Assembly (NCBI RefSeq): GCF_964204645.1
Contig: NC_134029.1
Coordinates: 12,426,850 to 12,490,849, forward strand
Origin: Tubulanus polymorphus
Lineage: Eukaryota; Animalia; Nemertea
Direction: 5' to 3'
DNA: 64,000 bases
This document shows, piece after piece, positions 25,087 to 58,037 of this stretch. A program made the position numbers and the translations under genes. How positions within the stretch are numbered: the stretch's first letter is position 1; every line of letters begins with the position of its first letter. A model generated the notes under the pieces. That model did not search any database and was not told where the DNA came from. It worked only from the letters and a program-made list of their open reading frames with translations.

Positions 25087-25087
25087 A

Positions 25088-25105: not shown

Positions 25106-25107
25106 AA

Positions 25108-25319: not shown

Positions 25320-25607
25320 CATCTTACATTTAGACATGTCTTTAAATGACGGCTTGTCCCGTGGAAAATGAGCAAAAAAGCGAAATTTGTCGCGAAAACG
25401 TCACGATATGTAGACATATTCATGTGGACTTCACGCGATATATCGCGATATATCGACATAAATATGGCGACTTGTCGAGTTTGAACGCGACAACTCGAGG
25501 CCCTTTATCGCTTCCATACTATATCAGATTAATCGACTTCAAAATAGGCGAAAGCATAAGTCTTTATTACGTTATAAATTGGCCTAATTATTCAAAAGCT
25601 AATAAAG

Positions 25608-29486: not shown

Positions 29487-30783
29487 CTTAAGCCTTAAGG
29501 TCGCGTAAAACTCGATAAACACTTCAAGCGACACAGCGAACGATCCCTTTCCCCCACAGCGAACGCTTACTCCGAATGTCAAGTGTGAGTCCAGCATACG
29601 GATAGGAGTGTGTTATATACTTGTATTTAGTAAATACCTTGTGCATTTGACAATGATCGGTATGTACTGTAGGAAATATAGAGTATTGATGGTATTGATA
29701 TAGAGGTTGAAGCCCGCGGCCGAATAAAGTAATATATTCTTTTATTTTGATACCTCGTCGACATAACAGCTTTTCTCCGTTATATCTCTTGTTTAGTTTA
29801 GGCCTACGACTCCCCGGTACACTTATGATTTATCTTAGTAAATACACGGTTAATTTGGTAAAGAAAAATAGGTATTGCTAAACTAACTGCTTGACGCCCG
29901 CAGCCAAATCACTGGTAGTTATAAATTAATTTGTACTCGATTTGATTCTCATGATGAGGAGAAACTCGCAGCTGATCCCCGGAACGACGATGTAGTAACA
30001 CACGTCTGTTGGAGTAGTATTCAGGGAACCGCTTGAATCGAGGAACCGGTAGATGGCGGGTCAATCGCTCATTCAATAGATGGCGTTCCTTTCATCAGTA
30101 GGAGCAATGGCTGCCAATCGAACTGTAAATATCGAAAAAATGCACTCAAAAAATGATGATAGGATGAGCTTAGCCTTAGGCCTTAATTTCAAGCTAGATT
30201 TTTATGCTTCCACCGTGCTCGAATTTAGGGGATCCAGAAGGGAGGTTTTACCTGGATCAAAGTTCCGTGACGAATGAGGTTGTGTAACAACGCGCAAAAT
30301 CATGCGGAAATCTTTGCTGCATGAATTGAATGTACTAATTACACTTACAGCGCCCTAGGCTACAAGCCATGGATGAATCAAATTGTCTTAATTTGGACAA
30401 AGTTCTATATTCGGCCTATCCCAGTTGGTTTTAGCAAGGTTCCACTGATTGATTTATTCTCTTGAACTTTGAAACATGCCATAATAGGAGCCCTAAATCA
30501 ATTTGGTCTTAATTTGATAGTACCGATACCAAAGTCGTCATTGAATCAATTTCTTTCAATCTGAATCAGAGCAGAGAATACTTAATGAACTATGCCTAAA
30601 TCAATTTTAACAATTTGTTCACGTGCCCAACGTTTTAAATTAATCTCAAATCATCAAAAATATGGTTTATAAGCATGGAAACAGGAAACATCTCAAGAAT
30701 TTCAAACCTTTTCTCTTCAACATGAGAAAATGAAGACTTTTTGACAATCCTTCAATGCCATGTGAAAAATCAATGGATATAAA

Positions 30784-33700
30784 ATGATGGTAGGCCTATA
30801 TTGAGACTGCACAGTTTCACGGGTGGTATTTAATTAAGACCAAATTTGAGGTATGTGTTGAAAAGATTAAGCAAAATATCCCCAAAAAATTGGGTGCTGA
30901 TCAGGCCAAATATGAAGGCACTTTGGGTCTTTGAGGGGGTCCCTGGACTCGGGGCCAAGAATAGTCCCCAGGGTTGTATTGTAAAGCCACCAGGAGTCCA
31001 TTTACCTGTTAGGGGGGTCCCTGGGCCCGGGGCCAAGACTCATCGGGCAAATGTGATGAGGGTTTGGTTAATCGTAAAGGGGTACACCCTGCAGGTTCTT
31101 GTTAAATTTAGCACTAATCGGACCACAGGTAAAGCCACCAGGAGTCCATTTATCTGTTAGGGGGGGTCCCTGGGCCCGGGGCCAAGACTCATCGGGCAAA
31201 TGTGATGAGGGTTTGGTTAATCGTAAAGGGGTACACCCTGCAGGTGCTTGTTAAATTTAGCACTAATCGGACCACAGGTAAAGCCACCAGGAGTCCATTT
31301 ACCTGTTAGGGGGGTCCCTGGTCCCGGGGCCAAGACTCATCGGGCAAATGTGATGAGGGTTTGGTTAATCGTTAAAAGGTACACCGTGCAGGTGCCTGTT
31401 GAATTTAGCACCAATCGGACCACAGGTAAAGCCACTAGGAGTCCATTTACTTGGTAGGGGCCAAGACTCATCGGGCAAATGTGATGAGGGTTTGGTTAAT
31501 CGTTAAAAGGTACACCCTGCAGGTGCTTGTTGAATTTTGTGCCGATACAAGGTAGTTAATCTGTAATTGATTGTTTCATTGTAGGTGCTTCCTCCAGGTC
31601 TTAGAAACCCTGGTAATGTCTGTTTCCTCAATTCTGTCGTGCAATGTCTTCGGGCCACCCGAGGCTTTTTACATCGCTTTTTTAAGAAAGCATGTTCGCA
31701 GCCCTGTAGGCCTACCTGCAATGCATGTAACATTCAGCAATCGTTACTTGGCAACACTGAGCCACTTATTGATAACATAAAAGGTATGTATAATTTTCAT
31801 TGCAGTTTTTAAATGACAGACTTGTATGATAGATGAAACAACAATTTTTGATTGAAATGGTTTTAACTTGCAGCGTTGTTATTTGACAATTGTTGTTTCA
31901 CTGTCGAGTTAGAATATCTACTTAATTCACAGTGGATAAGTACATGCCTATTGTCAGACAGACCATCAAATTTGTGTCTGAATGAAAGGTCAAGGCAACG
32001 TGGGCTCCAAAAGCACAAGATAAATCCATGGGCACAAGATTATCAGTAGGTGAAGGAACTACATTACAGAGCCGCAGCTTTCGATGTTCCTGAGATCGTA
32101 CATAGTCTCTATGGGCATAGAAAATCTCATAGTGTTCATACGATTATTCTTGATGAAAAGAAACGTGGGTTTTTTGCTAGCATTGAAGTGCATGTAGCAA
32201 TTTTGCGATCTTTATCAGAAAGCATTGTTATTGAATATGACTCCCTATGTACTTTTGTAATTATATTTTCCAGACTTCGTGGTCGATGCAGAAAAGCACC
32301 AACAGCAAGATGTGATGGAATTTTTTCATGGCGTGTGTTTGAAAATCAAAGAAAAGTAATTATTTTGTTCTCATCTTTTTAGCCAACTTGGTACCCACTT
32401 GGTACCATCCCCCCTGGTAGGGCTTGAAATCTGATGGCATTGATTGAGACTTGCCACTTCATGAAACCTTACCATACTAGACAGAGAATGCAGCTTAGAA
32501 GATGCAATTATAAGCCAATCATAAATCCTGATTAATTTAAGCCCAGGTTTTTCCATTGATAGTTTATCTGTGAAATTATTCTCGGTGATTATTCAATCAA
32601 TCTGATTGGTGCCGCAAGTTTTCAAACCTGCATCTAGTGTGGCAGAGTTTCGTGCCGCTGCTAAGTCTAGCAATGCCATCAAGTTCTTATCCCTGCCAGG
32701 GGGATAACTTAGGATTTACATCCCACTTCTTTCATCATCTGTAGACAGAATCTAGTTTTCAATACGCTTTGATTATGACCTTTCCAAGTCATAGGTTTGT
32801 GCATATATGTTCACCAGAGGGCATTGAATTTTGAAATTGTCAGATGAAATTGTCAGATTGTTGACCAGTTCAGATGGCGCGGTGTCCTTGGACCTCAGAC
32901 CGGCCTGGTCAGAATCAAGATGGCCGACTGGTGCTGGCACTGTATCGTGGTTCAGTTCATTTTTCTAATCAAGACAAAATCTACTCCTACCTTTAATTGC
33001 ATTCCTGTTTCGTTATCTGATATAAGCATTTCATAAGGCTGTGGTAAACCTCTTGGCGCATTATTATTATTATTTCAAACCACCTTCCAAGTGGGCATGG
33101 TATCCCTATGGACCCCTAGTCAACTTTTTACCCTAAGAGGTATGGGTATGATTTCCATATTTTACTTTTTCATACTGGTATATTTTGTGATCAATCTATT
33201 CTGTATTTGCTGTCACCTAGCGTACTATATTTTCAGTTTTCACTTTTGTTCTCTCTAGCTTCACTTGTGTATTTATTTGCAGAATGCCGCTTTGTTTTGA
33301 ATTTGTGCTGAAAACAACAGGTAGGTCGATGTGACTTTTCACAGAAAATTGCTGATATTTTCCTAATCAATTTTTGTAATGATGTAGCTATCCATTTGCA
33401 GACACTTGCCTGGAATGTGGAAAAGAGAGCATACGTCAGTCGGAACATTTGAATATGTCTTGTGCCATCGAGGTGAATATTAAGAATGTATTATATGCTA
33501 GTATTAGAAATTGCTCCACTGTTGTTGGATTGTATACAACCATGGAAGATGAACCGTGTCGACCCCTGATAGATTCAAACAGCTCATATCAGTGACTTGG
33601 AATTAATTTTGACCAGTTCCAAGATATACGGATATTCTGATTATGTGAAAAATTGGCCTTTAGTGGGTGTGGCAGGAGGTGGTATATCGCGGGTTTGGTT

Positions 33701-36700
33701 CACTGCAAGTTTTTTTAGTAAAATAACAATAATTACGCAGAAGCTCATCTGCAATTTGACTTATAATAGTGGTAGGGCTACAAGATCTGTTAATGCAAAT
33801 ATGCTTATGGTACCTAGAACACTCATTAGGTCTGGTGATCATGTCTTTAAATCTTATGGACCTCGTTTATGGAATACACTTCCTGTGGATATGAGAACAA
33901 TTGTTACATTGAGACATATAAAAACTTATTTAAGAATTGTCTGTTTAAAAGGGCCTTCCTCGACCAAGAGATAGCACAGTTAGCAAGTTTTTCAGTATAG
34001 TGCTTTACAAATTACTTGTGCTATGTCAATGACAAACCTATAATTAGATTCATCTTTGAATTCATTTTGTAGTCAGAAGAACGGAAAGCATTCCAGACCA
34101 TTCAGGAATGCGTAACTAATTTCTTCAGTCTAGAGGAGGTGACGGTTCGGTGTTCAGAGTAAGATATCAAAGATTAAGTACCAGTATACTCTCTTTCAGT
34201 CCACTTCTAATACAAATGATGTAACCTTGTTATTCTTATAGTATTAACAACTATAAGTTTGGTTGTGTGCACTGTATATGTATAACCTACCGGTAAATAT
34301 CATCAGATATAATACATGTCCCCACTTAATCCATCAACAGGTGTCCGTGTGAACAAGCTTTTCGCTTTCAAGAACTTGTGAATGCACCTGATTTCATTGT
34401 CATTGATTTGAAAAGGTTAGCCATGTTATTTGTATTTTTTGAGCTGTTTCACATCGTAAATTTGATAATATCTATAATGGAAATATAATGATAATATATA
34501 TAATATATGAACTTTCTAATTGAAATACTTATAATGGATTTCATATAGATATCGTTGGTTCGGCAATGCAGGGAAACTCATGCACCACGTAAACATTGGA
34601 AAGAATTTAGATATTCTTGTTGGAAATGATCAGGTAATCTTCTACTATTTCACTTGGAAGTTGTTTAAAACAATGTAAAACGCTTGCATGACATTGTGGC
34701 ATGCTCTAGGGGAAATTTTTTCCCAGTTACGTTTTAACTCCTGACACTATTAATCATTATAATCAGTATTACTCAATAGCGTATTTTATTATCATGATCA
34801 TTTGAAGTGCTTTGATCAAAGTAAATCTTGAGTGTCAAGAATCAGTCATCATGTTTTTTGTATGTGTGATTTCAGTATGTTTATGAGTTATATGCTGTCA
34901 TTACTCATCGAGGTGTCGAGGTAACCAGTGGGCACTTTGTTGCGTATCTGAAAGTTCTGAATGGTTGGGCTCTTGCCGATGATGATAATGTAAGTTTAGC
35001 AAATCAATAATGAAATGAAAGCTAATTTATGATCAAAGTATGATTTGGGTCGTTGAATTCTAATGCAGTTCATGTTAATACAAATGTATTCCAAAACCTG
35101 TCATCAATTAAATCTATTGATATATAATGAGATTAGGCTATACATTATTTTTTCATCTGTCAGGTTTCCAGTATGAGAGCTCCAATCTTTCAAGGAGGCG
35201 AGCCGTATGGTTGCTTTTACGAAAAGAAAATTCACTCTGTAAGTACAATTTGCTTATTCATATTGATACACGGATATATGTATCAATAACCACAATCAAT
35301 TGCAAAATTGTAACTCCTGGTGGCTTTACCTGTGGTCCGATTAGTGCTAAATTTAACAAGCACCTGCAGGGTGTACCCCTCAACGATTAACCAAACCCTC
35401 ATCACATTTGATTAGTTTTTAGTATATGGTCACCAGGGGACATTGAATATTGGAGTATTCTGATTGTTGAGCAGCATTTCAAACCACATCCCATGGTGTC
35501 CCTGGATAGTTTAATATTGACAAGTTCGATCCCTACGTTATCTTGACTTAAGCACGTACAGAAGATTCCTATCTGTTTAATCAATCACATCAGTTTAATA
35601 AAAAAAAAGACCTTGCCTACAAGGCTGTCAAATTTGTATTATCATGTATAGTATATATTTAGCCCACATTTGATTTGTGAAGTGTTAGAAATTTTCTTAT
35701 CATTATTACTATAAGATATATCATTTATTATAGAGGTTTTGATTCGCAATTATTGTGCAAAGCTTGGAGCACAGGTTGACATGACTACAGTTTTTTATGT
35801 ATTGCTCAGCCTTTTTTTAAATGTCTTTCAATTCATATATTGCAGGTTTATACATCAGAAATGCCTCAAACTGTAAGTAGAAATAATTTATTTCTTATTC
35901 CTGAATTGTACCTCATTGGGTTTTGAACCAACTTTTGACGTATGTGGTCCTGAGCTTAATTTCTATATATAAACGTCTGAATCAGACAGTGATTATGTAT
36001 ATTTGTGACAATTTGCTGAAATCTAATTTACCGGTAGTTAACTCAACCTATGTTCAACGGAGGAATGATAAATTGCTGATCTTAGTTAAGATTCAAATAG
36101 ATGATTTGGGGAATTAATACACTTATCATATCGAAATTTGTATGGGAAAATTTAGAGGTTTAACAAGTTTTGAACCTATGAGTTTTAGAAGTTTTGTAGA
36201 AAAAGATTTTTAATTAATCATTGTTTAAAGTTTGGCCCATCACCATAAGAAAAATTTGGTCGATCGGACTCAAGTTGGCAGTCCTATGACCTTTTTAGTG
36301 CCCAAAAATGTCAATTTTGGCACAAATTCTGAGTCCTGTAGCTTCTTACTGGTTTGCCATTTCTCATTGCAATTTGTGATGGGTATTCTTTGGACCCCTA
36401 GTTTGTGTGGCGAAAATGGACCGTGTTTAACATCTCCGGTTCGTTTTCGTTACAACATCTCATCCTTTCCTCCGATATCTCCAGGTGGAGCGATTTCATA
36501 TATATAAATATGTTTTGTATTGTGTAAATTTGTATCTGTGTACTACTGTCAATTTTTCGGGCGTCTCGTTACGGTCTATCGCGTTCGGGTTGGGGGTTTT
36601 GGTCGGTTTCTGTCGGGAAATAGCACGATCACATCTTTTTATTCGGCTTTTATCATAAATTCGCGCTATGACATTCTGGTTACTTACCGGCAGTCTATTC

Positions 36701-39700
36701 CTTTGTATTCGCTTTTCAATTTTGAACTGCCGTTTTGTGATGTCATAATCCCACTTTCATCATATTTCCGTAGTTTGATTTGTTCTCATCGGTTTCTCGC
36801 TCGCGAGTTGAGCATTGTCGCACTGCTAGGCGGCTCACTATTATTGCGCGCGGATATCAAACTCGGGTTTGATTTTCAAATTCCGCTTTTGACCTTTCAA
36901 ACTTATTCTTTTGGCATTTTTATCGCGTATATCGTGATATCCCTTACAAAAAATCACTCATGTGATTTTTTAAAAAACACGTGTGATTCACATGTGTAAA
37001 AATGGGACATTATCACACATGTGATTCTGTATGTGAATCACACGTGTGATTTTGTATGTGAATCACACGTGTGATTTTGTCCCATTTTTACACATGTGAA
37101 TCACACATGTGATTCACATGTGATTTTGTCCCATTTTTACACATGTGAATCACACGTGTGATACAGCCCTGAATGTAAATCACACATGTCATATAACACA
37201 GTTATGTGTGATTTATAACGCATGTGATCTGCAGTCATCCTCATTGTTCCAGCTCCACACGACTGTATTCAAGAAGAAGTATAAGTACACATTCATAATG
37301 GTCAAAATTTGACCTCTTCCTTCATTGGACATGATGTTTCATCCATACTTCACAATTTCCTAAAAACTCATTGCCTGAAAGGAGATCTGCATATTGGCAA
37401 AACGAAATGAAGTTTCAAAATTACCAACCAAATGTAATAACTCACTTGTGTAAGCTTACATGTTAATGGGAATTTTATTTTCAAATATTTACAGATTTAC
37501 TTCGTCAATTTATACTGTTTCAGCATTTGTCCAATCTTCTTTCTAATTTGGGCCGCGGTAACCCCCAATCTACAATTCAGAACATGATCTGGAATGAGAC
37601 AAAATTATAAAACATTTAAATACTACACACAATTCCAAACAATAAATCAATAAATCAATATCCCTAATATCAATCATCTGATGAAAAAAGCCAAAGTTAC
37701 ATTATTATGATAAGTGAAACCAGACGAAAAACGGCGCTATTGTAACACTAGCTTATAAATTTTTTCAATCAACACTTACCATAACAGGGCTCAAAACCTC
37801 TTTTTCAGTAATTTGTTCCGGCTGAAAGTATACGTTTCATTCTCCGTGTAGATAAATTACTACTCGAGGAAATGTACTGACTCCCTAGATTAATAACGGA
37901 AAATTCCATTTTAATTTGTAAATGATTCATTCCAATGTAGAAAGAATTGGCAAATACTGTTCAATACCGGCTGAGCATTCAGTTTAGGAATGATACAATA
38001 TAGCATTAGTATGCAAACGAGTGTCTTATTCCTGGACATATCGTGATTTAAAAATAGTTCATGGTGTAATCTAGGCCTACTTGTTAGGCATGGACATGTT
38101 GTACTTTGCATGCATCAATCATGTCCATGAAATAAAGTTTGGATGAATTTGATTTAATTGATTGATTGGTACACGCCACTGATTTTACCGATTACAGTAC
38201 ATTCAATTAACATCATCGACTATGAATATTTGACGAAACACAATAATACTTGCTTTTGAGCTTGGATTCAAACACCAGACTTTTCGAACTAAGAAATTAA
38301 CCATCAAAATTGATTAAAAACAGCAACGACTATCCTCGAAATAATTGCAAATGGCGCCGTGCGTGCCTGCATGCTCATTCCAAGTCCTTTGCTAGCCGTC
38401 GTCAACGGTTCGAATCCCGTAAATACCTGCTAATTTTTCGAAGTCGTTTTTGAATATTAATATTTTTTTAGAACTCAACAGCGAATGTAAAAACATATCA
38501 TAACCTTATTTTATTCATTTAGCGGAATGAAAATACAAACTCACTAGTCCGTGGACATTGGTTCTTGGTTTTTGCACAGTAGGGGTGTCAGTGTTAGATA
38601 AAATCTAACCATGTGTTGAAAATGTTGAAATAATGAGTACAGTTATGGAAATATTCTTATTCCAACATGGATTCTATGACTAAAATGCAGATGTTCAGAA
38701 TTTGGAACCAACATGGGAATGGTTCATATCCGAAATATTCACACTGTGTTGTAGATTGGAATAACTGATGTTAATCACATGTGTTATTCTAATGACACGC
38801 GTGATCCTAGCGGTTACACATGTGATCTGTGTTGTTGAGCCAATCACATGTGTGAATCACACATGTATTTCTCAATCACACATGTATTTCAGAATCACAC
38901 ATGTGATCATGTGTTATTCACACATGTGATATGCTCCACAACACAGATCACACATGTGATAGCTGGAATCACATGTGTTTTCTGTGTCTTTCACACCTTT
39001 CACACATGTAATGTGTGTTATTCACACATATAACATGTGTGAATTTTTTGTAAGGGATCACTAATGGCCAATGAGCGCCCCCGGATTTCTATAAAATGCG
39101 GGTCGTTCGAGCACAGTCATTCTGATTTTCGAATCACACGCACGTACTTATAGTATCAGCGAACAACTTACAGCAATTAAATTCTTAATCGAATATAACT
39201 ATTAAAATGTAAGCGATAAGAGACGCGCCCTCTCTATCCCGCCTTCGGGTTGGATAGGGTCATCTTGTCCAACCCGAAGGATGAGATATATTCACTTTTA
39301 GATCGTCCGGCCAAGTTAGATGTTGACCGAGTTTGATTTTGGCCAAGTTTGATTCCGGCCCAGTTTGATTTCAACCAAGTTTGATTTTTTCGGTCTCCTA
39401 GTCTAGCAAAATCTACCGACCGAGAGCGTCACTATGATGGACAGTCATGATCAATTTTGTTTAGTTTAGTCGAGCTGACTTTTGTTCATACGTAAAATCA
39501 TTTTCCGGGCGTATTGATCGTCACATCATTTTCAACTACGACTGTATTGATCCACTCTCGGTCGAGCGATTTTGCTCCGATTGTATATAAAATATATATG
39601 TTTCTACATTTGAGCGCGATTGAATAATGATTTGAGATCGTCGCTATAATTTTCAAATCATCTCTCACCGTACGCCCGAATAAGGTGACTCTAACGTAAT

Positions 39701-42700
39701 TTCGTGACTTCGTATAATTTGACGTTCCTGACGCGAGACCGTACGGAGATGCACCCGAGGTGTAAACTTTATGAACTGGAGAAATGATTAAATTCAGGAG
39801 TTCAACTCTTGACATGATTAATTTTATACAAGTCTTACATTTTCGTCTTTTCTGAACAAGGAGAGGAGTTCCACCGCTATTTTCTGTCTCAGTGCCAATT
39901 ATTATTATTCGTCTTAATGAGAGGACCAGTTCGATCGGGGACGTATCGGCAGTAGTTAGATGAAGACCATCAATCGAGGATTCGAACCCCCAATCTTTGT
40001 ATCGACTGACGGCCTTTATCCAGGGGAAGTCATGACAAAGTGTCATACGGAGCGAACGGTAGATGTTGGGAGAACTAGGTTCGATCGCGTGCGAAATCCT
40101 GGCCAGGTAGTCGCCTACGAGGATGCTGAGCCCTGATCATGGAATGAGAAGACTGAATATTTTTATTTGATTATAATTTCGACAAGAACTGATATCTTTT
40201 CCCTGAGGAGGAATTACTTCCCCCAATATTTTCGCATAACCCGATTATATTGTCTCAGGGCGAACCCTAGTAGCAAACGCCTATTGCATCTATTATATAC
40301 GTAAACATATAAAGACCCGCTACCCAGGAGAGATACGCTACATTTGCTATTCTACCAGTTTGGATGGATTACCGAATAGACTAGTACCGTTATAGGCCGA
40401 CTCTACTGTATATCACTTAGGGCGAGACCGCCACCTCTACTGTATATCACTTTGGGGTGAGAGGACGTTAACAGAATTATCCAACTCAAAACAGAACAAA
40501 CTATATTTTGAAGAAGAATTCACGATTGATTTTTATTAATTATCTTATGTTGCGATACATCATAGGACGATTCACACTGTAGAGCATCAAACATTCGATT
40601 TAACAACTTAAATATCGGTATAAACAGAAGATGCTACATATTCACATAGTTTCAAGCTGCATATTTACAATTTCATATTATAATATTCATTGGCCCTGTT
40701 ACTTATTTGATTGGTATTTTTTTTTCATTTGGTATAACAAACTCATCACACCTTCTGGAGACAAAACAGGGGCTTTGATTTTGAAATCAAAGATTCACAT
40801 ATAGTTGTGTGATTGGTGGTCAAATAAACAGAGTTTTCTTGTGGAAATTTTATGTTTTGGTAGTTTTCCCTGTATGAATAGTTGTTTTTAAACCCAACTT
40901 CGTACAATACCATTATAGTTTATCAATGTTAGCTATGCATTTTGTTATTTTAGATAAATACATCTCGGGGACCATCAGCTCTCAGCGACGATGTGTATGA
41001 GATCATGCTTTCTGTGCTAAGTGGAAAGAAGATGCTCTCATCATATCCAGTTACTTCCGGTGACAAAAAATATGATGCTGTGCGCAAAAATGCTGCAAAT
41101 AAGTTATCTTCAAAAGCTTACATATGTCAAAAAGTTAACAACAAAAATGAAATTATATTCCTAAAAACGAGAAAAATTATTCCAAAATCATCAGCCATTG
41201 CCTCAATTATTGATCAGTACCACACGAGCATGGCTGGATCAGGTTCATCCAAATTAGTAGGAGCAATCAGCAGCAGTTTCCATGGTATATCAAAGCAAAC
41301 TATCCAAGATCATCTTAATTCGAAGCCAACGCACACGATACGGAATCCATTATTTACGAACAAGCCACCTATTAAGAATATAACAGCATCTGCTCCGATG
41401 AGCCGGGTACAAATAGATTTAGTACTAATGGAAGAAGTTGAGAACGAAGGATCTACGTACAGATATGTGTGCAGTGTGATTGACGTATTTAGTAGGTTCC
41501 TTTGGTTACGCCCAATTCAGAACAAAACATCGAAAACGGTGGCCGAAGTGACAAAAAATATATTCTGTGAGTTCGGCAACCCGCAATACGTACAGACCGA
41601 TAATGGAACGGAATTCAAAGGAGAGTTTGATTCATTTTTGAAGACTGCAAAAATAAAGCATATATTTGGTTCGCCTAGGCATCCCCAATCACAAGGAAAA
41701 GTAATGATTATATTTTGATTGAAAAAATTGGGAAGTAGTTTTTGTATTACAAATTTAACAATGTTTTTACCGTTCTTTACAGTCCGAAAGATCACATGGG
41801 AGCTGGAAGAAGATGCTTCGGTACCTACTCGGGAGAGATGATGAGACAAATTGGGTTGCGCACATTCCTGAGCTCCAGAGAATTATGAATCAACGATCAC
41901 ATAAAGCATTTTGTATGTAATTAGGGTATTCTGCCTACCTTTGTTAGAAACCTTATTGTTATCCTAGCTATCATAATAATAGCCCTACTCCTCTGTTATT
42001 TCTAAACTGCAAATTTGCAGTATAGAAGATACTACACCTTAATATCTACCGCGCTGGAACCGGGTGTATTGTACCTTTCAAATTTTAGGGGTCCAAAGAT
42101 AGATATACCCCTTGGCAATAAGCTTCGTGCGGTATTGTCATCACCTGTCTCCATCTGGGCAGGGTGATGTGAAATAGGCATTATGGAACTCGTTCTTGCT
42201 CTACAATCTACACTTTTTAATGATTTTTGTATGTGTATGAAACTTGTCAGGAATATGTACCCTATTACAATTTTGTGATCTGAACATGACTCACTCACTG
42301 GCCGAAGGGTATTCGTTACGTATGTCTGGTTTAACCAGGCTTTTCCTATCAATTCATCTGCTATGAAAATACTAATTTTCTTTTTCAGCCGATAAGATGA
42401 CTCCTTTCGAAGTATTTTTTGCCAGGAAGCACAATCAAGGTGAAGGCCTTCAAAATGGTCAGATGACGAAAGCAGACTCCGTAGATGAAGAAAATACTTC
42501 AGATGTGGCTTCTTCAAATGTGAATACAGTAAAACCCCTTGCATGAATACCTCCCTATAGTGAACACCTCCTATAATGAACACCCTATGTGCGGTCCCAA
42601 AACCTAAAATACATGCATCAGTACTTATGCGTTAACACAGTCATAGACGCAGTATTACATCAAGATCATGACCTCCCTATAGTGGACAGTGAGCACTTTT

Positions 42701-45700: not shown

Positions 45701-47806
45701 CAACTAGTCCCAGCGGGCTATGAAGGTTCAGTTTGTAGGTCCGTAGACAGAATCCAGTTATTTAAGGAAGTTTTACAGATGCTGCGGTAGACAGTTGATA
45801 GTTAAGCACTTCAAACCAGCTCCCAAGTGGGCAAAGTGGGCCTGCACCCCTAGTCTTAGTGTATTTTTCTAATTCTGCTACACTATGCTTTTACGCTATG
45901 TATGTAGTGAAATAATCATGTAATATCCATAAAACCCCTGTGTGATCACATTAATTGTATCGTTTTTCTTTAACATTCCAGTTGAATGCAGACACTCATC
46001 ATATTGATCAATGTGCGCAACAAATATCTGATAAGATTAAAGCTAGTAACAGGTAAGCCATACTATAAACTATAACTGTAATGGTTTGCAATTTCCACAC
46101 GTTAATTCATACCAATATCTCATTCCTGAATATTTCAGCTCTGATCAGGGTGACAGCAACGCTCACAAGCAGGGCGTGGAAGGAATGATGACTCTTATTA
46201 AGACAGTGAAGTGAGTAGTCATGATGAATGTACAGTCCACCCCGATATCCCGCCCTCCCCGCCTACCGCCAGGTTTTCTCCATGTACATCTCAAAACACC
46301 TCCGATATACCGCCATACTCTCTATAGTGTCATACTCTCTATACCGCCAAAATCGTTCTGCACTGATGTGGGCGCAGTATACCAGGGGTTGACATTAGTG
46401 GTAAAGCAAAATTATTTTGATATTAGACACTGGTATCAAACTGCCTCAAGCTTTATTGTATTTAATCCTAATGGTCTAAGAGCAGTCAATGGTAAAGTAT
46501 GAATCATTTTTACTTACAGAGATGTTTCGCAGCTAGAAGATAAGCAATTAACTTATTTGGTTATGCAGAATGAGTGCTATTTGAGGAATATTTTCCAGGG
46601 AAAGGTAGTGTACTTAAAATAATCATATATACCAGTCATTAGCGATTAATTTTGTGTTCAGGTGTCGTACAAAACTATCTCTCTAAGGTATTATATTAGT
46701 CTTCCATGACTGATATGTATCACAGTATTCATTACTTGTAGTCAACAGTAATGCTCATTTTATATATATATACTTTTAGACTAAATGTCGACGCCATGAA
46801 GACTACAAGAATGGCGGAAAGAGCAGGCGTAAGTTGAAAATTAAGTACAATAACCAGTAACTAATACCCTGGTAACCAAGTGTTTATGTGCCTTGCTTAC
46901 TGTATTTCAGGTAACTTGACCTTGCAAGTACCAATCACTTTGTACAGTGATGCGCAATGTGATGTAATAATAAAGGGATTAATGGACATGTTTTGCCCAA
47001 CTGATACGAAGGTTTGTATATACCGGTAAAGCTTTAAGTAATTTACCCTAGTATATCAAATATTGCGTATGTAACCCACTTAAGTGAGCCATTTCTGTGT
47101 AGACGAAATATTTTGGGTTGTTTTAAATATGCTTCAATGCTTGTCTCGCTATGTTCACCAGGGGTTGTTTAATAGTAGATGTTCCATCCTCCCCCGGCAG
47201 GGTTCGTACCCGATGGCATTGGCACAAAACCCTGCCACACTAGACTGAGTGCGCAGCTACCAGGCAGCTTAGATGATGACATTATTAGCAAATCAGATAT
47301 CCCGGGTTTTCCCATTCTTAGTTGTTCCGTGAAATTTACCTCCGCGATTCTACAACAAGCAATCTGATTGGTGCCGTAAGTTTTCGCGTGGCAAAGCTGC
47401 ACACCCGGTCAAGTGTGGCAGGGGTTTGTGCCGTGTGGCTGAGTGAAGCGATGCCATCGGGTTCGAATCCCTGCTGTGGGAGGATGTAGATGTACCTGCA
47501 TATATTGTTATATTTTGTATGTACTGCATTTTAATGTCATTGATTCCTTAATTTGTTCACAGGGGGCATTGAATATTGAAATTGTCTGATTGCTAAGCAT
47601 TTCAGCGAATGTGCATGTTGTCTCTTAACACTTTGTTAGCCCGACCTCACCAAACTTTTGAATTATATTTTCAGTACATGGATTATGTGTTTCGAGTTTT
47701 GTTGCCAGAAACACTGATAAAGATCTATATGGAGGTCCATCAAACATCACATGAACTAGCAGAAGAACGCTTGGCCGATGCTCTTTTGGGAAGTGAAAGT
47801 GATTAA
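30784..47806 (+). CDS. Spliced USP(C19)-integrase fusion transposase, ~974 aa, ~26 exons
   Basis: GT-AG exons with consistent phase and no internal stop: 30784-30789 (tentative), 31585-31783, 32274-32355, 33283-33320, 33402-33472, 34073-34158, 34341-34415, 34549-34633, 34876-34989, 35164-35238, 35846-35872, 40954-41700, 41783-41912, 42389-42519, 43088-43231, 43656-43845, 43967-44093, 45090-45147, 45300-45319, 45562-45571 (tentative), 45982-46052, 46139-46210, 46520-46604, 46780-46828, 46911-47011, 47675-47806 (TAA). Confidence 0.72.
30935..31545. repeat. ~148-bp tandem repeat (~4 copies) in the first intron
   Basis: AAGACTCATCGGGCAAATGTGATGAG recurs at ~31035, 31184, 31332 and 31463. Confidence 0.9.
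31585..35238 (+). CDS. Ubiquitin-specific protease (peptidase C19) domain, 9 exons
   Basis: Cys box GLRNPGNVCFLNSVVQCL (Cys 31621); QQQDVMEFF; finger pairs CLEC and CSEC; PDFIVIDLKRY; His box YELYAVITHRGVEVTSGHFVAY (His 34933); WALADDD; YGCFY. Confidence 0.9.
32378..33120 (-). mobile_element. Decayed Helentron/HINE-like copy containing a palindromic MITE (~32406-32706), intronic
   Basis: The end TTCAAACCACCTTCCAAGTGGGCATGG...GGACCCCTAGT is the reverse complement of the start of the 1247 element. The inner MITE resembles 47185-47486. Confidence 0.5.
33750..33960 (+). pseudogene. L2/CR1-type LINE ORF2 3' fragment in an intron
   Basis: RATRS...LMVPRT...GDHVFKSYGPRLWNTLPVDMR resembles the L2 C-terminal GDRAFSxxxPxLWNxLP motif. 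Confidence 0.65.
35313..35410 (-). repeat. Inverted partial copy of the intron-1 148-bp repeat
   Basis: Reverse complement of 31197-31294 with 2 mismatches in 98 nt. Confidence 0.92.
36230..36404 (-). mobile_element. Internally deleted Helentron/HINE-like fragment
   Basis: Reverse complement of ~2185-2340 joined to the element start GGACCCCTAGTTT. Confidence 0.6.
36941..39056. mobile_element. CACTA/EnSpm (CMC)-like non-autonomous element
   Basis: TIRs CCCTTACAAAAAAT ... ATTTTTTGTAAGGG, 2-bp TSD AT, dense subterminal CACATGTG repeats at both ends. Confidence 0.75.
40954..43845 (+). CDS. Retroviral-like DDE integrase (KRBA2/SCAND3/GingerRoot type) and its C-terminal region, 5 exons
   Basis: RVQID (D 41416), VIDVFSRFLWLRP, QTDNGTEF (D 41599), HPQSQGK|SERSH (E 41786, across an intron; D34E), NWVAHIP, TPFEVFFAR, YEPGHRVLV, WVDISMLTSLT. 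Confidence 0.9.
42527..43006. mobile_element. Tc1/pogo (Tigger-like) MITE in an integrase intron
   Basis: TA|CAGTAAAACCCCT ... AGAGGCTTTACTC|TA, with internal inverted TATAGTGAACA motifs. Confidence 0.55.
44240..45003. mobile_element. Palindromic MITE with inverted 8-bp microsatellite arms and a ~52-bp central minisatellite
   Basis: TIRs GGCTCAAGTCCATTATAGC / GCTATACTGGACTTGAACC. (ACCGACAA/ACCGACGA)n on the left, its reverse complement on the right. GGATTACCCTTATATAATGTGGCTGGGATCGAGGGG repeats in the centre. Confidence 0.7.
45693..45853 (-). mobile_element. Minimal Helentron/HINE-like remnant retaining both ends
   Basis: AGTCCCAGCGGGCTAT...AATCCAGTTATTT...TTCAAACCAGCTCCCAAGTGGGC...CCCCTAGT matches the reverse complement of both ends of 1247-2659. 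Confidence 0.55.
47185..47486. mobile_element. TIR MITE with a 9-bp TSD in the last intron
   Basis: CATCCTCCC...GGGAGGATG with long imperfect arms; flanks TAGATGTTC / TAGATGTAC. Confidence 0.7.
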
Positions 47807-49957
47807 GACACTGAAAGCTGATCAATTGCCATATCTATAGTCGTTATTACGAGGTTCCACTGTTACATGATTGAAGTGTATGTTCCATCCATGCTTTTCG
47901 TAATTGACTTTGTGTTTTACATAGAGCAAAATATTTTTCATATACGTGGCAATGTACGTTGTATATTATAATTCATTGATACTGAAACAAAGTAATTTTG
48001 TATTGGTATATTAAGTATGTTGAACTGTTCTGACAATCACATATCACTGATGTTTTTCATATTCTTTTTTATTGTTTGGTGAAAACGAAAACATTCAAAT
48101 AATGTACGTAGAGTAGGTATTGGGTTAGGAAAATTTTATCAACAAAACAAACGTCCGTTGTGTTTTGTCTTTTATAAGCTTCGAGAGAACTAAGTATCAG
48201 TGGATAGAAAGAGGTACATGTATATAATATTCCTGTGTATATATTTTTTAATGTCAACGCAGAGGGATGTAAAATTAGAATCTTGTAAAATTGACATGTT
48301 CATTTTAAAAGAGATTATACATATGGTTATTATATTAATTTGGTCCTTTAGATGTAATATGCATTTGTATGTTTACTGATATATTTTATATGATAATAGA
48401 GCATAATTCAGACACATACATAGATGTACTGGCCATATCTTTTATCCTATTTTTATCAAATGTCAAAATGCTCAATAACATATTAAATCATTTCATACTT
48501 ATAACTACATATCTAGCTCTGTTTTCGAATAGATCTGAAGTTAACTAGTCTACATATCATATAACTCAATAAAAAGTCTAATTCACTTAGGCTTAGATGC
48601 ATGAAATCAAAATATTTGATATGCGTAGTATGAAAACTTGGGCCTAGTCAAATGTTTACACTAAATTTGGCTAAATGAAATAGATTAAAATACTTACCTG
48701 TAAATATCAGCGAATAGAAAGAGTAAGATATATAAAATTCATGTGTATATGTATCGAGAGATTTAAAATCTGAATAACTTTCTGAGTCACTGCGACTATA
48801 TATCTACCCTTGGGCTAGCTGGTGTCAGATGGCCTAATATTTAATTAAATACAAACTATTCGTGCAATCGATCGCTATTACTCGTCGATTACTGCACGCT
48901 ATTACTACCTTGTTTGAGTGTATCGTCAAACCGCCAGATTGTATAACATTGATAATGGATAAGTTTGTTTAATGATAATAGTGATAAATATCAATTGAGC
49001 AAGATGGTAGATACACAGGTGCTCACAGTAATTCACAGTTTTAATTCGACTGATTTTCCTGAAAATTGAGACAAAACAACGTGTTTGCCGATAAATAATC
49101 AAAGTAAAATAAAGTCTGCCTTTCCGTCTGCCATCTAAACTTCGCATCAATGAAAAACTGATATTATCAGATTGACACATGCATTTACAATAAAGAATAT
49201 ATGTGAAATTAAGTGTTGCTAAATATTTGTAATATGCTCACACTATACATGCTACGTTTCACAAGTACGATCGTCTTTCCAGTATGCATAGCAATTTAGT
49301 TATTTTTTGAATTACACTACTTATATTTTCTAGACGAATCATTTGTAGTGCATTTATGAATGACATAAATAAAGGTATTTTGTATTAATTAAGTTTGGTT
49401 TCAATTGTTTTTATGCCATTCTTTGTAACAAGGCTACGTACGTTGCTGACGAGCAAAGAAGATTGCATACAGATCGTTGCAATTCCTAGATACGATTCCT
49501 GTCAATTAAGTTCTCTCTATGTTTGTTGTAAAAAATACGTTCTGGATCTGGAACTTGGCAATAAGCAAATGAAACATGGTGTATAGACTGCCAAAAGAAC
49601 TATCGTTTCAAGAGCATCGCCACTAGGAATAATCATCTAGAAATTCGAGGAAAAGCTGTGCGATTTGTTAGGGATAAGTGAATAACTTAAATTTCACAAT
49701 TTTCAAAGATTGCCCTAGCTACGCTTATAGGGGTAGGAGATAGAAAATATCTATGCACGTTGTATGTATATTCGAAAGAATACCCACAATGAGCTAGTTT
49801 TTTTGTAATTTATACATGAAATATCAAATTAACATATAACTGAATAGTGCATGGAGATTTCATACACTAGTTTGTTAGTTATTCGAATCAAATGTTTCGT
49901 TGAAAGCACTGGCTTGAAATTATGTTTTTGTTGTTATAATTTTGAATATGAATAAAC

Positions 49958-51553
49958 GGTTGTAGGTAAAAATCCCCTGGGTAAAAATCCCCTAGGTAAA
50001 AATCCCCAATTATTCAAAGTAGGTAAAAGTCCCCCACCTTTTGAATGGAGTCCAAATTAGATACAATTTTAAGGTCAATTTATTCGTATTAATATATTCT
50101 ATTTATTATTTACCTTATAATTGCGTTACATAGAAATATCATGTATAGAAGTTATCGCATTTCAATGAAAAATACAAAATTAGAAGTTAATTAATTCACA
50201 AAATCGCATCACAATAAAAATTACAAATTGGTTGTTCATTAATACTGTATCGCACAAAATATAAGTTAAAAAGAAAACAATCGCACAGTTCAAACATATT
50301 ATGATTTTAATTTTCAAAAAGCACTCTAAATTAAAAGTCTATTTATAACGCACAGCTTAAATAATATATCACAAGTAAAAAATGGCTCATCAAATAGGTA
50401 AAAGATATTACATTTTGAAGTTTAAAAAGTATTACAAATTAGAAGTTAATTAATGTACAAAATCGCATCACATTGTAAATCACATCGCACAGTACTGCAT
50501 CGCGCAAAATATAAGTTAAAAAGAGGTCATCGCACAGTTCAGTTTTATTTTCAAAAAGTACTCCAAGTTAAAAGTTACTTTAGTTAACGTTTATCAATTC
50601 TAATTTCCAAGCGGAATGTTATGACCCACACCACGCAGGAAATCGGCCATATTCAAATGTCCATCATTGTATTGTCGACACAGTATTTTTAATCGTTCGT
50701 GTAACGGACGATGGATGTTGCTAACCCGTCGTTGTGGAACTCCACCGATGGCGTTTTCCATTATCTTGGTGCTTGTGACACTCTGTTCCATTTGAATGGT
50801 ACGGATGGCGCGCCATATAGAAGGGTGTTTGTGCCCAATCAAATTGCGGAATCTGTTGTTCCATCCTTCTGAAACATTATTAGTTTTGGGGTCAGAGTTT
50901 AAAGTTGCTCGATTTACGTTCCATCTCTCGGGTGCGAATCTCGGAGCAATTCTCCGTATTATGTGTCGATTCTCTTCTCCGATTCTTCTTTCCCTATATG
51001 TTCCATTAACATATGTCGCATCGAAGTAGTTAATAAGAGGATCACAACCATCTGGGGCAACATCTCGTAGATGTTGCATTCCCGCCACAACATCCGCAGT
51101 GGGAAGAAATGCCAAACCATCAAGCCCACAGAATAACTTGAAATCGTCCTCATTCTGATACCTGAATACATAAGAGTAAATGAGTCAACAACAATTTGTA
51201 CAAAATCATTCAATTATTTTAAAAATTAAAAAAAGGTCATTTTCTTACCGATTTGCCATCCCGAGCTCTTGTATCTTGCGCCAGGTTGATTGTCTTAGGT
51301 GATAAAAACAACCCTGAATCTGCAGTGCATCGCCGAAGACAGCTCTTAACGCGTGATGAACATCTCAAAGTCCACTATAACTGTATCGGGATCAATACCA
51401 TCGACATTTTCACTGATGGCATTGAACAAATCCTCGTATGTACCTTCTGACTTCCGCTGTAAGAATGTGTACACTAAAGGAACTGTTATATTGTCAACCA
51501 AAGGAGCATGGATGACATACACCTGAGAAAAAAGTGGTGGTGCCATCGCAAAG
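49958..51553 (-). mobile_element. Truncated Mutator (MULE) transposon, one TIR plus the 3' part of the transposase
   Basis: TIR GGTTGTAGGTAAAAATCCCC with internal repeats at 49958; transposase remnants upstream on the minus strand. Confidence 0.8.
50600..51553 (-). pseudogene. MULE transposase pseudogene fragment (two exons, 5' truncated, frameshifted)
   Basis: FAMAPPLFSQVYVIH...VPLVYTFL...KSEGTY...IVDFE; FYHLRQSTWRKIQELG; AFLP...YFDATYV...WNV...TNNVSEGWNNRF...HPSIW. Confidence 0.88.
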
Positions 51554-51659
51554 TTCACAAAGGATATTGGTGAGGAATTAAAAACTTGAAAGCAGCAAGC
51601 GGAAAACAGTTCGATTTAAATTTTTCGTAATTCAAAGTAAGCATAGACAAAGAGCTAAC

Positions 51660-52342
51660 GGTTGTAGTTAAAAGCCCCCTCTGTAAAAATCCTCTAGGTA
51701 AAAATCCCCAAATATTCAAAGTAGGTAAAATTCCCCACTTTTCAATGATGTTCAAGAACATTTCAAAGCAAAATGTTTCTGAAATTTTATTTATTTGCAA
51801 TGAGATTGAAATATGTTTGAACTGTGCAATGAAATCTTTCGTTGGGGTGAATTAGTTAACTCTTAGAATAAGATAAATTGTTAGAATTAATAAGAATAAT
51901 GAACTTATTATTCTTTATATCGTACAATTCGAACTGCAATGGTATATTTTTGAACTGTGAAATCGTGTTAACTTGTATTTCAGCTGTGCGATGCCATGAG
52001 TTAATAGAAATAATGAACGTTTAATTTGAAATACTTTAGATTCAAGCTAGTGCGATAAATTTTAAATGTGCGATGAACCCTTTCATTAACTGCTATAACT
52101 TAAAGTACTAATTTGGTATTAATGAACTGTTAATTTGTTGTAAGTTTTAATGCAATTAGTGTATACTATAGTTTGTACGCTCGTGATATCCTTATGGTTT
52201 TCCACGGTAAAATATAAATAAATTGGATATGTGTATCTGAATTAATTTACCTCAAATTGTATCACTTCATTCAAAAGGAGGGGGATTTTTACCTACTCTG
52301 AAGAATTGGGGATTTTTACCTAGGGGATTTTTACCGCTAACC
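51660..52342. mobile_element. Mutator-family MITE
   Basis: TIRs of the same family as 49958; 9-bp TSD AGAGCTAAC / AGAGCTTAC. Confidence 0.8.
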
Positions 52343-52759
52343 AGAGCTTACAAGCCATTATACATTGAACCTTATTTAATCTAGATGACCCCGTAATTCC
52401 TTCAATTACGTACGTACACAATATGATCACGGAAAGCGTACCAGGTGATAACGAATAATTACTCGGCCACTATATATTGATATTACGAATCGATGTATTT
52501 AATTCGGTTATCTAAACTCAGTCTACAATTCTTTAAATCACTAGTTAATTAAAAGGGTTAGGGGTAAAAAAAATCACCTAGTTAAAGATCCCCTATAGGT
52601 AATGTCCCCTCGGTGAAAAACCCCAATTCTCCAAAGTAGGTAACCCCCTACATTTTGATTTGGAGCGCAAGTAGATACAATTTTAAGGTCAATTTATTCA
52701 TATTATTTACGTACTTCTACGAATCTACGAGCAATTATCTGAAATTCAAACCATAGAAC

Positions 52760-52933
52760 CACAGGGGCTCGTTTCAGAGTTGTAGATTATGTAAAAACGA
52801 TAATCTGTTAATGCAATGTATATAGTATATGTAAAATAACTTTATATATTATATTATTTTATATATACTATATACATTGGATTAACAGATTATCGTTTTA
52901 ACATTACCTACAACTCTGATACGAGCCCCTGTG
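52760..52933. mobile_element. Hairpin MITE (174 bp)
   Basis: CACAGGGGCTCGT...ACGAGCCCCTGTG with ~80-bp arms; flanks CATAGAAC / CATAGCAC (8 bp). Confidence 0.7.
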
Positions 52934-54941
52934 CATAGCACAGGTGGATCCGTTTCATTTATGATTGTGCACTAAAAAGAACAAATTGCTGCTTATACCA
53001 TAGCTAGAAATGTCTTCACATTGCTTAAGACCATAAAAACACCTTTTAGCAACAATTCTACTTGACCTCCCTACCATGTCGCCAGGATCGAGGTTCCCAG
53101 CGCCTAGTTTTGCCTGTGCACAATTCGAAAGAGCGCTTTGAAAAGGGTACTCCCAAAAACTTGGTGATCTTTCATTGTATTTCCAAGTGACCATTTCATT
53201 TGAATAACCAACACTCTCGTAAAACCATCAAAATTGTCAATTTGTTTATGTTCAATATGCTGCAAATGCAATATCTTTTTATTTCTCCAAAAACAACTTG
53301 TCATTTCTTCAAGTCGATCACGGAGTGGGGTTTATCACGATCTAGGCGCTTTTTTCAGATTAATTCAAAAGACGCATGAATCTTTTCTGCCATGTTTACA
53401 GTGATAACCCTTATGGCCTTATCCCCAGTGATCCTGACAAGTAAGCGTTGATAAACGTTGCATTTTACGGTACTTGATGGGCCAGCCAAAGGTTTCTTTG
53501 AACTTTTTGGTTGAGTGAATTCTCTACAATTTTTATCTTTTCGAAATTTCAAACCTGAACTCAGTTCACAAAAATTCCCCTGACGTCAATAATCATAATT
53601 AGATAAAAATTACACAATATGTTTTTGACAAATATTTATTAATATATGTAATAAAAATGTGCATTTTTTATTAAAATTGTTAGATGGAAGATGGGAAGAT
53701 TGTTAGATGGGAAATTCAATGATTTTAAAGCAGGGCCACATTCAGGCATCGGCTACTGGCAGCTCTAGTACCTGCATTGATTAAAGTAGGTCTGTAAACG
53801 AATTAATACGGTATGGGAGAAAATGGCCTCTATATCCTGCAAGTCTGGTCTGGATTTTTCGCCGATGAGTCAACAGCCGAAACTTCGTAGTTTGATTTTG
53901 ATAAATTCCGTCGTATAAAATTGTTATGTGAGATCAAATGTAATAAATATAGAATGTGTGAAGGGCTGGGATCACCTGCAATCTCCATTTCCTTAGAAAC
54001 AAAATCCACATTGGAATCAGATAGATAAAACGAAAATTTCCATACAAAGACTTTATTATTATTCAAGCTTTATTTTCATTTTTCAATCACATATTCAATC
54101 TATACATGCCACTTGTAAAAAAAATAGAAATAAGGCAGTTGGATGATACATGCTGTATACTGCTATATACACATCTACCAGCTACATAACCTCATATTTT
54201 AACGTTAACCTGATACTAATTAAAAGTTCATCATTATCATACCAGTCCCCAAATTAATCAGCCATTATAAAGCATCAACCAAGATTACAGTTTGATAATC
54301 ATTATGTTTATAACTCCAGAGATGTTTACAAGGAAGTCAATCCAAAGTCAAATTTGGTTAAGTGCTCATAATGATAAGTCAAAGTGATGTTTGAAACATA
54401 AATACTCAAGTCACAATCTGTATTTCTAATATGTATTTATAATCAAATCTGCCAAATGTAAGTGATCATCTGGATAAGTCGTCACTTTTATCACAATCCC
54501 CAAAGTGTCGAGTTAACCGTGGTTAACTGTTTTAGTTGAATCAACACATCAAAAGGGACTCCCACCCTACGGTCTTATAATCACTCGATACGGTTCAGAT
54601 ACGGTTCAGAAGAAGAGTTAACAGCGTGATAAGTCTTATTGGTTCCCACTCTGTTTCTCTGTTTGTAGTTTTCTGTCAGTATGCTGCAAGTAGATAAAAA
54701 AATGTATGTCAATTATCAAAATTTTATGTGATTTTGTATAAATATGTAATAATGAATACTCACAACTGTTCACAGCATTTCTTCTTTATGCTCGCCAGTT
54801 CAGCATTCATCATAACCTGGTAACATATTATCTGCCAATCCATTTACTTATAACCCTAGGAGGCACTGGTGGTCGACTCAATACGAAAACAGCAATCTTC
54901 CCTGCTAATAAAAACGTGGACAATACATAAATGTCTATTAT

Positions 54942-55231
54942 GATGGGCGTCACCAGGATTTTTTTGGAGTTCATTTTTAGGAATAAGGGGGTCTGGGTGT
55001 CCTCCCCAGAAAATTTTGTGCAAGCAGGCGTGTTCTGGTGCAATCTGAGGCCGATAGGTAGACTGGTTCCCGTTTATAGGTAGACTGGTTCCCGTTTACT
55101 TTGTCTTTGCATGTATTGATTTTATTTTGCTAATTTAGCAAATGCAAACCATGAGCCGACGTTCGTCGACGTTTGAAAATTCAAAAAAAGGGGGTTCGTT
55201 TTAACTACCGAATCCCCCTAGCGACGCCCAT
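54942..55231. mobile_element. Small TIR element, possibly hAT-like MITE
   Basis: ATGGGCGTCACCAGG ... CCTAGCGACGCCCAT inverted ends. Confidence 0.45.
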
Positions 55232-55981
55232 GATTACTGATACACACACAGGCCCAGACTGTGGTATTAACTTTAACCCGGGGGCCAACTCAATTAAGAA
55301 AAAAATTAATGTGCATGATCACCCAGACAGCATATTTCACAATAACAGATGTACACACTCTCACGAGCAGTTTCCAGCAAAAAATAAATATCTCCTATCT
55401 GTCCAGCAAGTAAGTAAGAAATGCTTGTGAAAACCAAGCAATGTGACATGTGACAATATAAGCATCCCAGGGGCAGATCCAGGCTGGGAAAAATGGGGTG
55501 GGGGTTCACTTTATATGACAAGGGCATTTTATCGTTGTGAAAAGTGTCCAGTCGCATTGAGTGGGGCAGGCGCGACACACCACTAAGCTGCAGACTTTTG
55601 TCATATGCTGAGATCATTTGTAGGGTGGAATCTTTTGTAGTGAGATTTTCTAAAGGGCTGGTCAGAAAAGGAGTTGCAACCCTGGATCTGAGCATCCCTC
55701 AAAACAAGTTAGACAATCCCGTCCGAAAAACTCCCAGTAATTTACTCTACATACCATACCGGGGCAAGTTGGTAGGCTCCAAAAGTTACCAAAACCATTG
55801 GCATTGCCATTTGGCCAGTGTCTATTTCCAAAGACGTTGGACTGGTTCAACGTCCCTTTGGTTTTGGAGATGATATCGATGATTTTGAATGATAGGACCT
55901 AAACATGCAGTAAATTAGGACATGCAAAAAATTAGCCAGTTTTGTTGAATAAGACAAGTGACGTGAAAAACATGACAGAGC

Positions 55982-56101
55982 AGATCTTTACACGGACTTG
56001 ACACAAAACGATTTTGACCTCAGTATCCTAGGTACTGTCTTTTTATATATAGTACCTAGGATACTGGGGTCAAAATCCTTTTTTCAAGTCCCTGTGGATC
56101 T
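55982..56101. repeat. ~120-bp imperfect palindrome near the right TIR
   Basis: GGACTTGA...GATTTTGACCTCAGTATCCTAGGTACT / AGTACCTAGGATACTGGGGTCAAAATC...TCAAGTCC. Confidence 0.8.
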
Positions 56102-56248
56102 TTTAGTTAAATGTTTAAATTCCAAAGCGGAACCAAGAAGTGACAGCGTAGCGCAGCGCACCTAGAGCGGCGCGCAGCCGTGAAGGTTGAAAATGACACC
56201 CTCTAGCGGTTCCTTGTTTGATGTGGTTCCTCGAATGCTACCCCGACA

Positions 56249-57785: not shown

Positions 57786-58037
57786 GATGAGGACGCCAGT
57801 GATATGACGACTGAGTTTCAAGTCGTCGAAACGTCACGATATGTCGACATATTCATGTCGAATTGATGCGATATATCGACATGAATATGGCGACTTGTCG
57901 AGTAGGAACGCAACAACTCGAGGCCCTTTATCGCTTCCGTAGATCTTTCATTGAGTAGGATCACTTGAATGATCGCTTTAATATCACTCTAAAAAAAAAG
58001 AATCTGCCAAAATGACCTTAATATTCGACACTATATC

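Follow-up and report, generated by a model that had tools for sequence, protein, structure and literature searches.

A large multi-copy transposon with a Ginger2-type integrase and a predicted ubiquitin-specific protease gene in the nemertean Tubulanus polymorphus

Autonomous Ginger2 transposons are 2.7-6.7 kb long and Ginger1 transposons 2.6-7.1 kb according to Bao, Kapitonov and Jurka (2010, PMC2836005), and GingerRoot elements, described in PMC6839031, reach 12.9 kb (range 3.9-12.9 kb). On the duplication made at the target site the published accounts differ, PMC6839031 placing Ginger2/TDD among the elements with 6-bp duplications, at odds with PMC2836005 and PMC3845634. Here we analyze a 64,000-nucleotide stretch of the Tubulanus polymorphus genome (NCBI RefSeq assembly GCF_964204645.1, contig NC_134029.1, positions 12,426,850 to 12,490,849), referred to below as the window, in which positions 30007-56248 are occupied by a 26,242-bp element that splits a high-copy host repeat and carries two predicted genes, one for an integrase-type transposase and one for a ubiquitin-specific protease (USP).

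Large size and a C19 protease, each taken singly, have precedents. Intron-bearing Ginger2-like integrases are reported from crab nimaviruses, where they mobilize far larger DNA (PMC10871703), and precedents for deubiquitinases in transposons are given in PMC2836005 and PMC9741609, the former noting a Trichomonas fusion of a transposase with peptidase C19. No giant or USP-carrying Ginger element was found in the literature searched, Repbase and subscription journals lying outside that coverage, and the Repbase records of the Ginger2 elements compared below may already hold a 6-bp duplication or cargo.

The left piece of the interrupted host repeat (29401-30006) breaks off after the hexamer CACGTC (30001-30006, plus strand), and the repeat resumes at 56249-57590 with a second copy of the hexamer (56249-56254, plus strand); empty sites hold one copy. 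When the flanks were rejoined (40 + 40 nt) and compared with five empty sites in the window, at 4844, 7496, 14026, 16701 and 60220, there were 3, 10, 3, 5 and 0 mismatches per 80 nt, respectively, and over 600 nt the identity to these sites was 90.4-97.7%; the site at 14026 carries CACATC. The terminal sequences of the element are TGT...ACA and form ungapped terminal inverted repeats (TIRs) of 52 bp that agree at 39 positions, the left at 30007-30058 (plus strand, beginning TGTTG, which fits TGTNR) and the right at 56197-56248 (minus strand, ending ...CCCCGACA and beginning TGTCG when reverse-complemented). The agreement drops beyond base 52 (41/60, 44/80); its binomial probability by chance is ~8e-13, and 1 of 200,000 random position pairs within the element was as good. 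The longest open reading frame (ORF) is 254 residues, and no long terminal repeat (LTR), reverse transcriptase (RT), polB or capsid was found in the selection of the element's ORFs and exons scanned against Pfam. A preliminary description of this DNA had claimed the CACGTC duplication, the gap-free ends, four of the empty sites and the lack of these LTR, RT, polB and capsid sequences. The end match gave the same count on recomputation, all four sites were found together with a fifth at 14026, and the last claim held for the frames scanned.

What that description had overlooked is that, on the window sequence alone, the right end could also lie 2 nt beyond, at 56250, the duplication then being the 4-bp CGTC. 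Reads distinguished the two. Our comparison of the right end covered 180 nt and four runs, in which X5 comprises raw reads from a study different from that of X1-X4, and X1 comprises contigs with depth. The X5 depth at the right terminus was ~17, split ~6/7/4 over three flanks: about 6 reads cross into the right copy of CACGTC and continue in the window's own flank, 7 switch immediately after 56248 to a flank that begins GATGTC, and 4 switch after 56247 to one that begins GTCGCC. Three X1 contigs run into other flanks, one with the GTCGCC flank and two discordant contigs that depart after 56248, and X1 has no depth on the window's own right flank. Because other copies leave exactly after 56248, and no loose end is listed at 56250, the 4-bp reading was rejected; the insertion of 30007-56248 is real, with a duplication of 6 bp.

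The right end is thus present at further sites in the same species, as had been expected of the ends in the preliminary description, and with other flanks beyond the same terminus the element therefore belongs to a multi-copy family that terminates in ACA, has a minimum of four right junctions and makes a 6-bp duplication. The window's insertion may be absent from X1, though a contig filter could also explain the missing flank depth; X2 and X4 gave no sequence at the right end, possibly also an effect of filtering. Runs X6 and X7 contributed hardly any sequence, which carries no weight as to expression. The empty site at 30006 is seen in 3,117 X5 reads, roughly 470 junction-depth units; the read tables do not display the left junction on its own. 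The element is young and multi-copy, and apparently polymorphic.

The transposase gene (40954-47806, plus strand) was modeled by eye as 13 predicted exons encoding 681 residues, with 12 introns that are all GT-AG and no internal stop over the 681 codons. The catalytic residues D155 (41416), D216 (41599) and E251 (in the first codons of exon 2) are present, and the core reads RVQIDL...VIDVFSRF.W.RP...QTDNG.EF...RHPQSQGKSERSH. Exon 1 matched Pfam rve with an E value of 1e-17, as well as the foamy-virus and other solved retroviral integrase structures. Homologues align up to residues 482-491, through a stretch that we take to be SH3-like and a Cys-rich finger (exon 43967-44093) that is backed by BLAST alignments to the relatives P0002, P0019 and P0055, and exons 1-6 are therefore supported; a pattern count for this finger in relatives gave 0, the pattern being too strict. 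Exons 7-13 have little outside support, the last matching PWP3A-B_C at E 0.016, under the cut-off. The start codon was not located, and the N-terminus of the model is incomplete. The model gave no Pfam match to Integrase_H2C2, and YPYY and GPY/F were not seen in it (GPK stands at the equivalent place of the latter), given the incomplete N-terminus; no OTU or Ulp1 domain was found in the element exons scanned. A candidate 14th exon (44935-45006) with an in-frame stop was dropped: it lies inside a nested insert absent from an X1 contig, and the frame is kept when it is skipped.

For the placement of this core we compared it by eye over 102 columns with the alignment published as Data S3 of PMC10045372. 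Among the rows seen there, the window's pattern, namely RxQIDL, (I/V)DV(F/Y)SR(F/Y), QxDNGxEF and PxSQGKxExSH/N, is shared by Ginger2-1/2/3_CGi, Ginger2-1/2_CySi and Ginger2-2_TeGr, with identity by eye of 57/102 columns to Ginger2-2_CGi and 50/102 to Ginger2-1_CGi. With Ginger2/Tdd as set out in PMC2836005, the element shares TGTNR termini, a TIR of ~50 bp (52 bp here) that falls within the group's range of about 45-300 bp, a Gypsy-integrase-like DDE core (judged by eye) and the lack, as far as seen, of YPYY and GPY/F. In contrast, Ginger2/Tdd makes a duplication of 4 bp (5 in TDD) in RTATAY, whereas the element has the 6-bp CACGTC at a GC-rich, GACGTC-like target; Ginger2/Tdd has an H2C2 finger, whereas the element lacks one and has 12 introns and a second gene; and the 2.7-6.7 kb of the former compares with 26.2 kb, or at most 19 kb less the listed nested repeats. 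Because two features of the 2010 definition, the 4-bp duplication and the H2C2 finger, are not found here, we regard the element, as judged from its sequence, as a variant of a Ginger2-type transposon and not as a plain member. Ginger1 in the same account is alike in its TGTNR termini, transposase introns and ubiquitin-family protease, but it has a 4-bp CCGG/CCGT duplication, 0-4 introns and the motifs YPYY, H2C2 and GPY/F, none of which were seen in the element, and its protease is a fused OTU or Ulp1, whereas that of the element is a predicted USP/C19 in a separate gene.

The preliminary description had instead proposed a GingerRoot-like element, an assignment that the Ginger2 pattern of the core, closest to Ginger2-1/2/3_CGi, does not uphold. 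It is true that GingerRoot/IS3EU elements, as described in PMC6839031 and PMC10045372, have 6-bp GC-rich duplications, no HHCC and known cargo, and that 5 of 77 GingerRoots have TG...CA ends, so that the ends seen here would be of a minority type. However, their ends are mostly TA...TA, their TIRs are 100-150 bp and not 52 bp, and their cargo consists of fragments; their core motifs WHID/MDSYDK...RVRSD...S(T/V)HNQ(R/K)IE, which set them in another clade, are missing here in the form they take in all such rows shown, with Ginger2 motifs present; and rva_4, which we infer to be the IS3EU/GingerRoot model, matched exon 1 at E 0.053 as against 1e-17 for rve. A GingerRoot/IS3EU element is therefore hardly credible as an account of this locus.

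Very improbable, too, is the remnant of a Polinton or of another endogenous DNA virus, reduced to its integrase. Polintons do share 6-bp duplications and integrases without an H2C2 finger, and the intron-bearing Ginger2-like integrases of crab nimaviruses (PMC10871703) give the viral version of this proposal some footing. Yet polB, capsid, ATPase and adenoviral protease were absent from the selection of ORFs and exons scanned, the element terminates in TGT...ACA, its core contains RHPQSQGK, missing from the Polinton rows seen in the alignment, and there was no close relative in viral contigs, the best match being 36% over part of the core.

Relatives of the transposase comprised 31 representatives at E values up to 1e-30 and 33-45% identity. 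When 40 relatives, picked mainly for length, were scanned, 30 had OTU, 1 had Ulp1, 2 were LTR polyproteins and 7 had the integrase core alone among the relevant domains. The OTU-bearing relatives cease aligning at about residues 445-520, and two of the relatives (P0071 and P0080) combine integrase, OTU and a weak F-box-like domain. The CxxC of the H2C2 finger is missing in the window protein and in 74 of 76 close relatives, the number that could be scored out of 96; all 7 of the more distant relatives scored have it. We also scanned 25 related loci (15 + 10, from 80 metagenome loci) for a TIR and a duplication, and no convincing 4-8-bp duplication was found in what were mostly short contigs. 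Separately, the locus L007:627-3691 holds an element of 3 kb with TGT...ACA ends, whose TIRs agree at 24/25 positions and enclose a distant Ginger2-like ORF; it showed no terminal duplication above 2 bp.

The main cargo, which had not been named in the preliminary description, is a predicted USP/peptidase C19 gene at 31585-35872 (plus strand). Our by-eye model comprises 10 predicted exons and 284 residues, all 9 introns being GT-AG and the frame open; the first and last exons of the gene were not located. The assignment to the USP/C19 deubiquitinases is based on the predicted Cys box (C at 31621), QQD box (D at 32309) and His box (34933), and on a Cys/His/Asp triad that is intact with Asp at 34978. 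Pfam UCH scored 30.8 and 31.5 bits for the Cys and His boxes against a cut-off of 23.9, and in the PDB these boxes align with human USP21/36/2 and USP14/36/12, respectively. In X5 the depth over the USP bins was 2.2-4.0 and over the transposase bins 1.7-4.4 times the single-junction depth (48.2-56.1 kb is left out of the depth figures), and the X1 contigs over both genes had depths of 73-104x, compared with ~47x for most junction contigs. Since USP and transposase are similar in depth, the data fit a USP gene that travels with the transposon family, and are not proof of it. The X1 contigs listed over both genes differ from the window by 1-5 positions per 630-1,160 nt; five coding differences (of 40 listed) comprised 3 synonymous and 2 conservative changes, too few to show selection.

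The size of the element requires one qualification. Ten nested or probably nested repeats total 7,331 bp, so the core of the element is at most ~18.9 kb, and two of them are lacking in X1 contigs. Since nested repeats account for 7.3 kb or more and two of them are missing from a copy in X1, some of the 26 kb may have been gained once the element was already in place, and the earlier proposal that it moved as one 26-kb unit is not shown. The proposal of an unusually large, intron-rich, cargo-carrying integrase-type transposon is supported, at 26,242 bp, with 12 transposase introns and the USP gene.

Taken together, we favor, with a probability of roughly 0.72, a large, multi-copy transposon, likely cut-and-paste and recently mobile, that combines a predicted Ginger2-type integrase, a 6-bp duplication and, likely, a predicted USP as accessory. 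By analogy with its family, the DDE transposase would bind the 52-bp TGT...ACA ends and excise the unit, and the CA-3' ends would be joined to the two target strands at positions 6 bp apart, possibly with GACGTC-like sites weakly preferred at this step. The predicted USP might strip ubiquitin from the transposase, chromatin or repair factors, and would likely counter ubiquitin-dependent degradation, silencing or repair signaling, in line with the role suggested for OTU and Ulp1 in Ginger and for VTD and OTU in Helitrons. The Helitron/Helentron OTU and VTD (PMC9741609) and the Trichomonas C19 fusion are alike in being transposon-borne deubiquitinases, with a proposed role as a shield from the proteasome, but they belong to other transposon classes and are fused domains, whereas the element has a free-standing, intron-rich gene.

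If the USP were passive cargo, on the other hand, the element would be an ordinary-sized Ginger2 that, in this lineage, captured a host USP and other DNA (Pack-type capture), the USP having no role in transposition. GingerRoot elements carry intron-bearing host gene fragments (PMC6839031), the X5 depth of 2.2-4.0 junction units over the USP also fits two host alleles plus one captured copy, and nested repeats make up 7.3 kb or more of the element. Against this, USP and transposase are alike in depth and in their low divergence from the window in X1, a run in which the window's right junction was not seen, with 2 differences per 635-1156 nt in the contigs listed for the two genes; the whole USP catalytic domain is intact, in contrast to the captured pieces of 84-1,654 bp given in PMC6839031; related transposases mostly have a fused deubiquitinase and the window transposase has none; and a weak search of 3 candidates gave no homologue or close relative of USP exon 1. 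We consider capture unlikely.

Several observations weigh against the transposon that we favor. Only one site provides a measured 6-bp duplication, and the two TIRs are just 75% alike. Both gene models were drawn by eye, with splicing predicted from sequence and start codons not found. No second full copy with both ends was seen in reads or contigs, none of the reads or contigs connects the USP gene with a terminus at another locus, and the depths above, lacking a single-copy host gene as calibrator, are not copy numbers. In a tree of 72 of 140 core rows, all unnamed (P0160 was left out for short coverage), the window transposase fell beside the OTU-bearing clade and not inside it, with weak support (79/86), and the tree held no named Ginger, GingerRoot or Polinton reference. 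As to the target, the right-flank hexamers CACGTC, GATGTC, GACACG and GTCGCC fit GACGTC at 17 of 24 positions, an equally good fit being found in 16 of 20,000 random hexamer draws; this is no more than suggestive of such a preference, the basis being four imperfect observations, because the GTCGCC flank departs 1 nt early and GACACG is the consensus of the two discordant contigs.

A further reading, which we offer tentatively and think somewhat less probable than even, is that the element is still active and belongs to an as yet undescribed lineage of Ginger2-related animal transposons. These would be giant, rich in introns and equipped with several genes; they would lack the zinc finger, make 6-bp duplications at GACGTC-like sites and carry a free-standing USP in place of the fused OTU of a sister clade.

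The nested repeats lie between and within the genes. A 148-bp tandem array at 30981-31537 is probably nested, and a partial inverted copy of it at 35313-35410 is missing in an X1 contig (joint 35311->35417). A high-copy short repeat at 36234-36394 also occurs outside the element, at 2181-2340 and 9400-9481, and exceeds 1,300x per strand in X5. The nested TIR element at 36941-39056 has 14/14 CCC...GGG ends, a 2-bp AT duplication and raised depth; we take it to be CMC/EnSpm-like. Its minus-strand exon-like pieces (37497-37822), one with an in-frame stop, and a weak Myb/SANT match (E 0.037) were all that it gave by way of coding matches, and its subterminal arrays are palindromic and CACATGTG-rich. 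The adjoining multi-copy stretch (39057-40200) has 72-81x in X5, compared with ~13x over the USP gene, and no TIR was found in it; its stop-free frame of 212 codons (39498-40136, minus strand) gave no Pfam match and no homologue, and its structure model had a pLDDT of 28. Intron 6 of the transposase gene holds a 770-bp insert resembling a miniature inverted-repeat transposable element (MITE) at 44240-45009, which an X1 contig of depth 76.7 lacks (joint 44239->45010). A decayed Mutator-like element (MULE) nest at 49955-52705 (minus strand) has TIR-like sequence in four copies, along with a broken transposase at ~50600-51540 (Pfam MULE E 0.0015, under the cut-off), and several MITE-like pieces are also among the nested repeats. 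Near the right end, possible small exons at 54640-55410 (minus strand) yielded no open multi-exon model and no family match.

Outside the element, an uninterrupted BEL/Pao LTR-retrotransposon ORF of 1,837 codons (19747-25260, minus strand) lies apparently inside the same host repeat family, with DUF1759, protease, RT, Peptidase_A17, H2C2, integrase and DUF5641 domains. The host repeat has long 31-bp minisatellite arrays at 2500-4260, 9800-13160, 25590-29490 and 58600-59730, and palindromic segments at 57822-58454. A 114-residue frame in an AT-rich stretch (103-447, plus strand) had no Pfam match and no viral-contig relative, and is presumably like a Polinton-associated gene; a 373-residue frame (62606-63727, plus strand), likewise with no Pfam match, we assume to resemble the C-terminal end of a Gypsy-type integrase.

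The reason for the ubiquitin and SUMO proteases found in so many transposons has been a matter of conjecture from 2010 or earlier (PMC2836005), and transposon OTU domains are called untested in PMC9741609. Where the protease has a gene of its own, as here, in a multi-copy element that is young and whose transposase frame is open, its role would be testable by transposition with and without the USP. The element would also widen the size range of Ginger2 to ~3-4 times the listed maximum, and its range of duplication lengths too, and it cautions against classifying integrase-type transposons by duplication length alone. Should genes of this kind prove common, a part of the 'lineage-specific USP expansions' annotated in animals may belong to transposons. 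And were the tentative reading as an undescribed lineage true, ubiquitin removal would have been kept under selection via interchangeable enzymes, and the family would provide a natural cut-and-paste system that moves ~20-26 kb.

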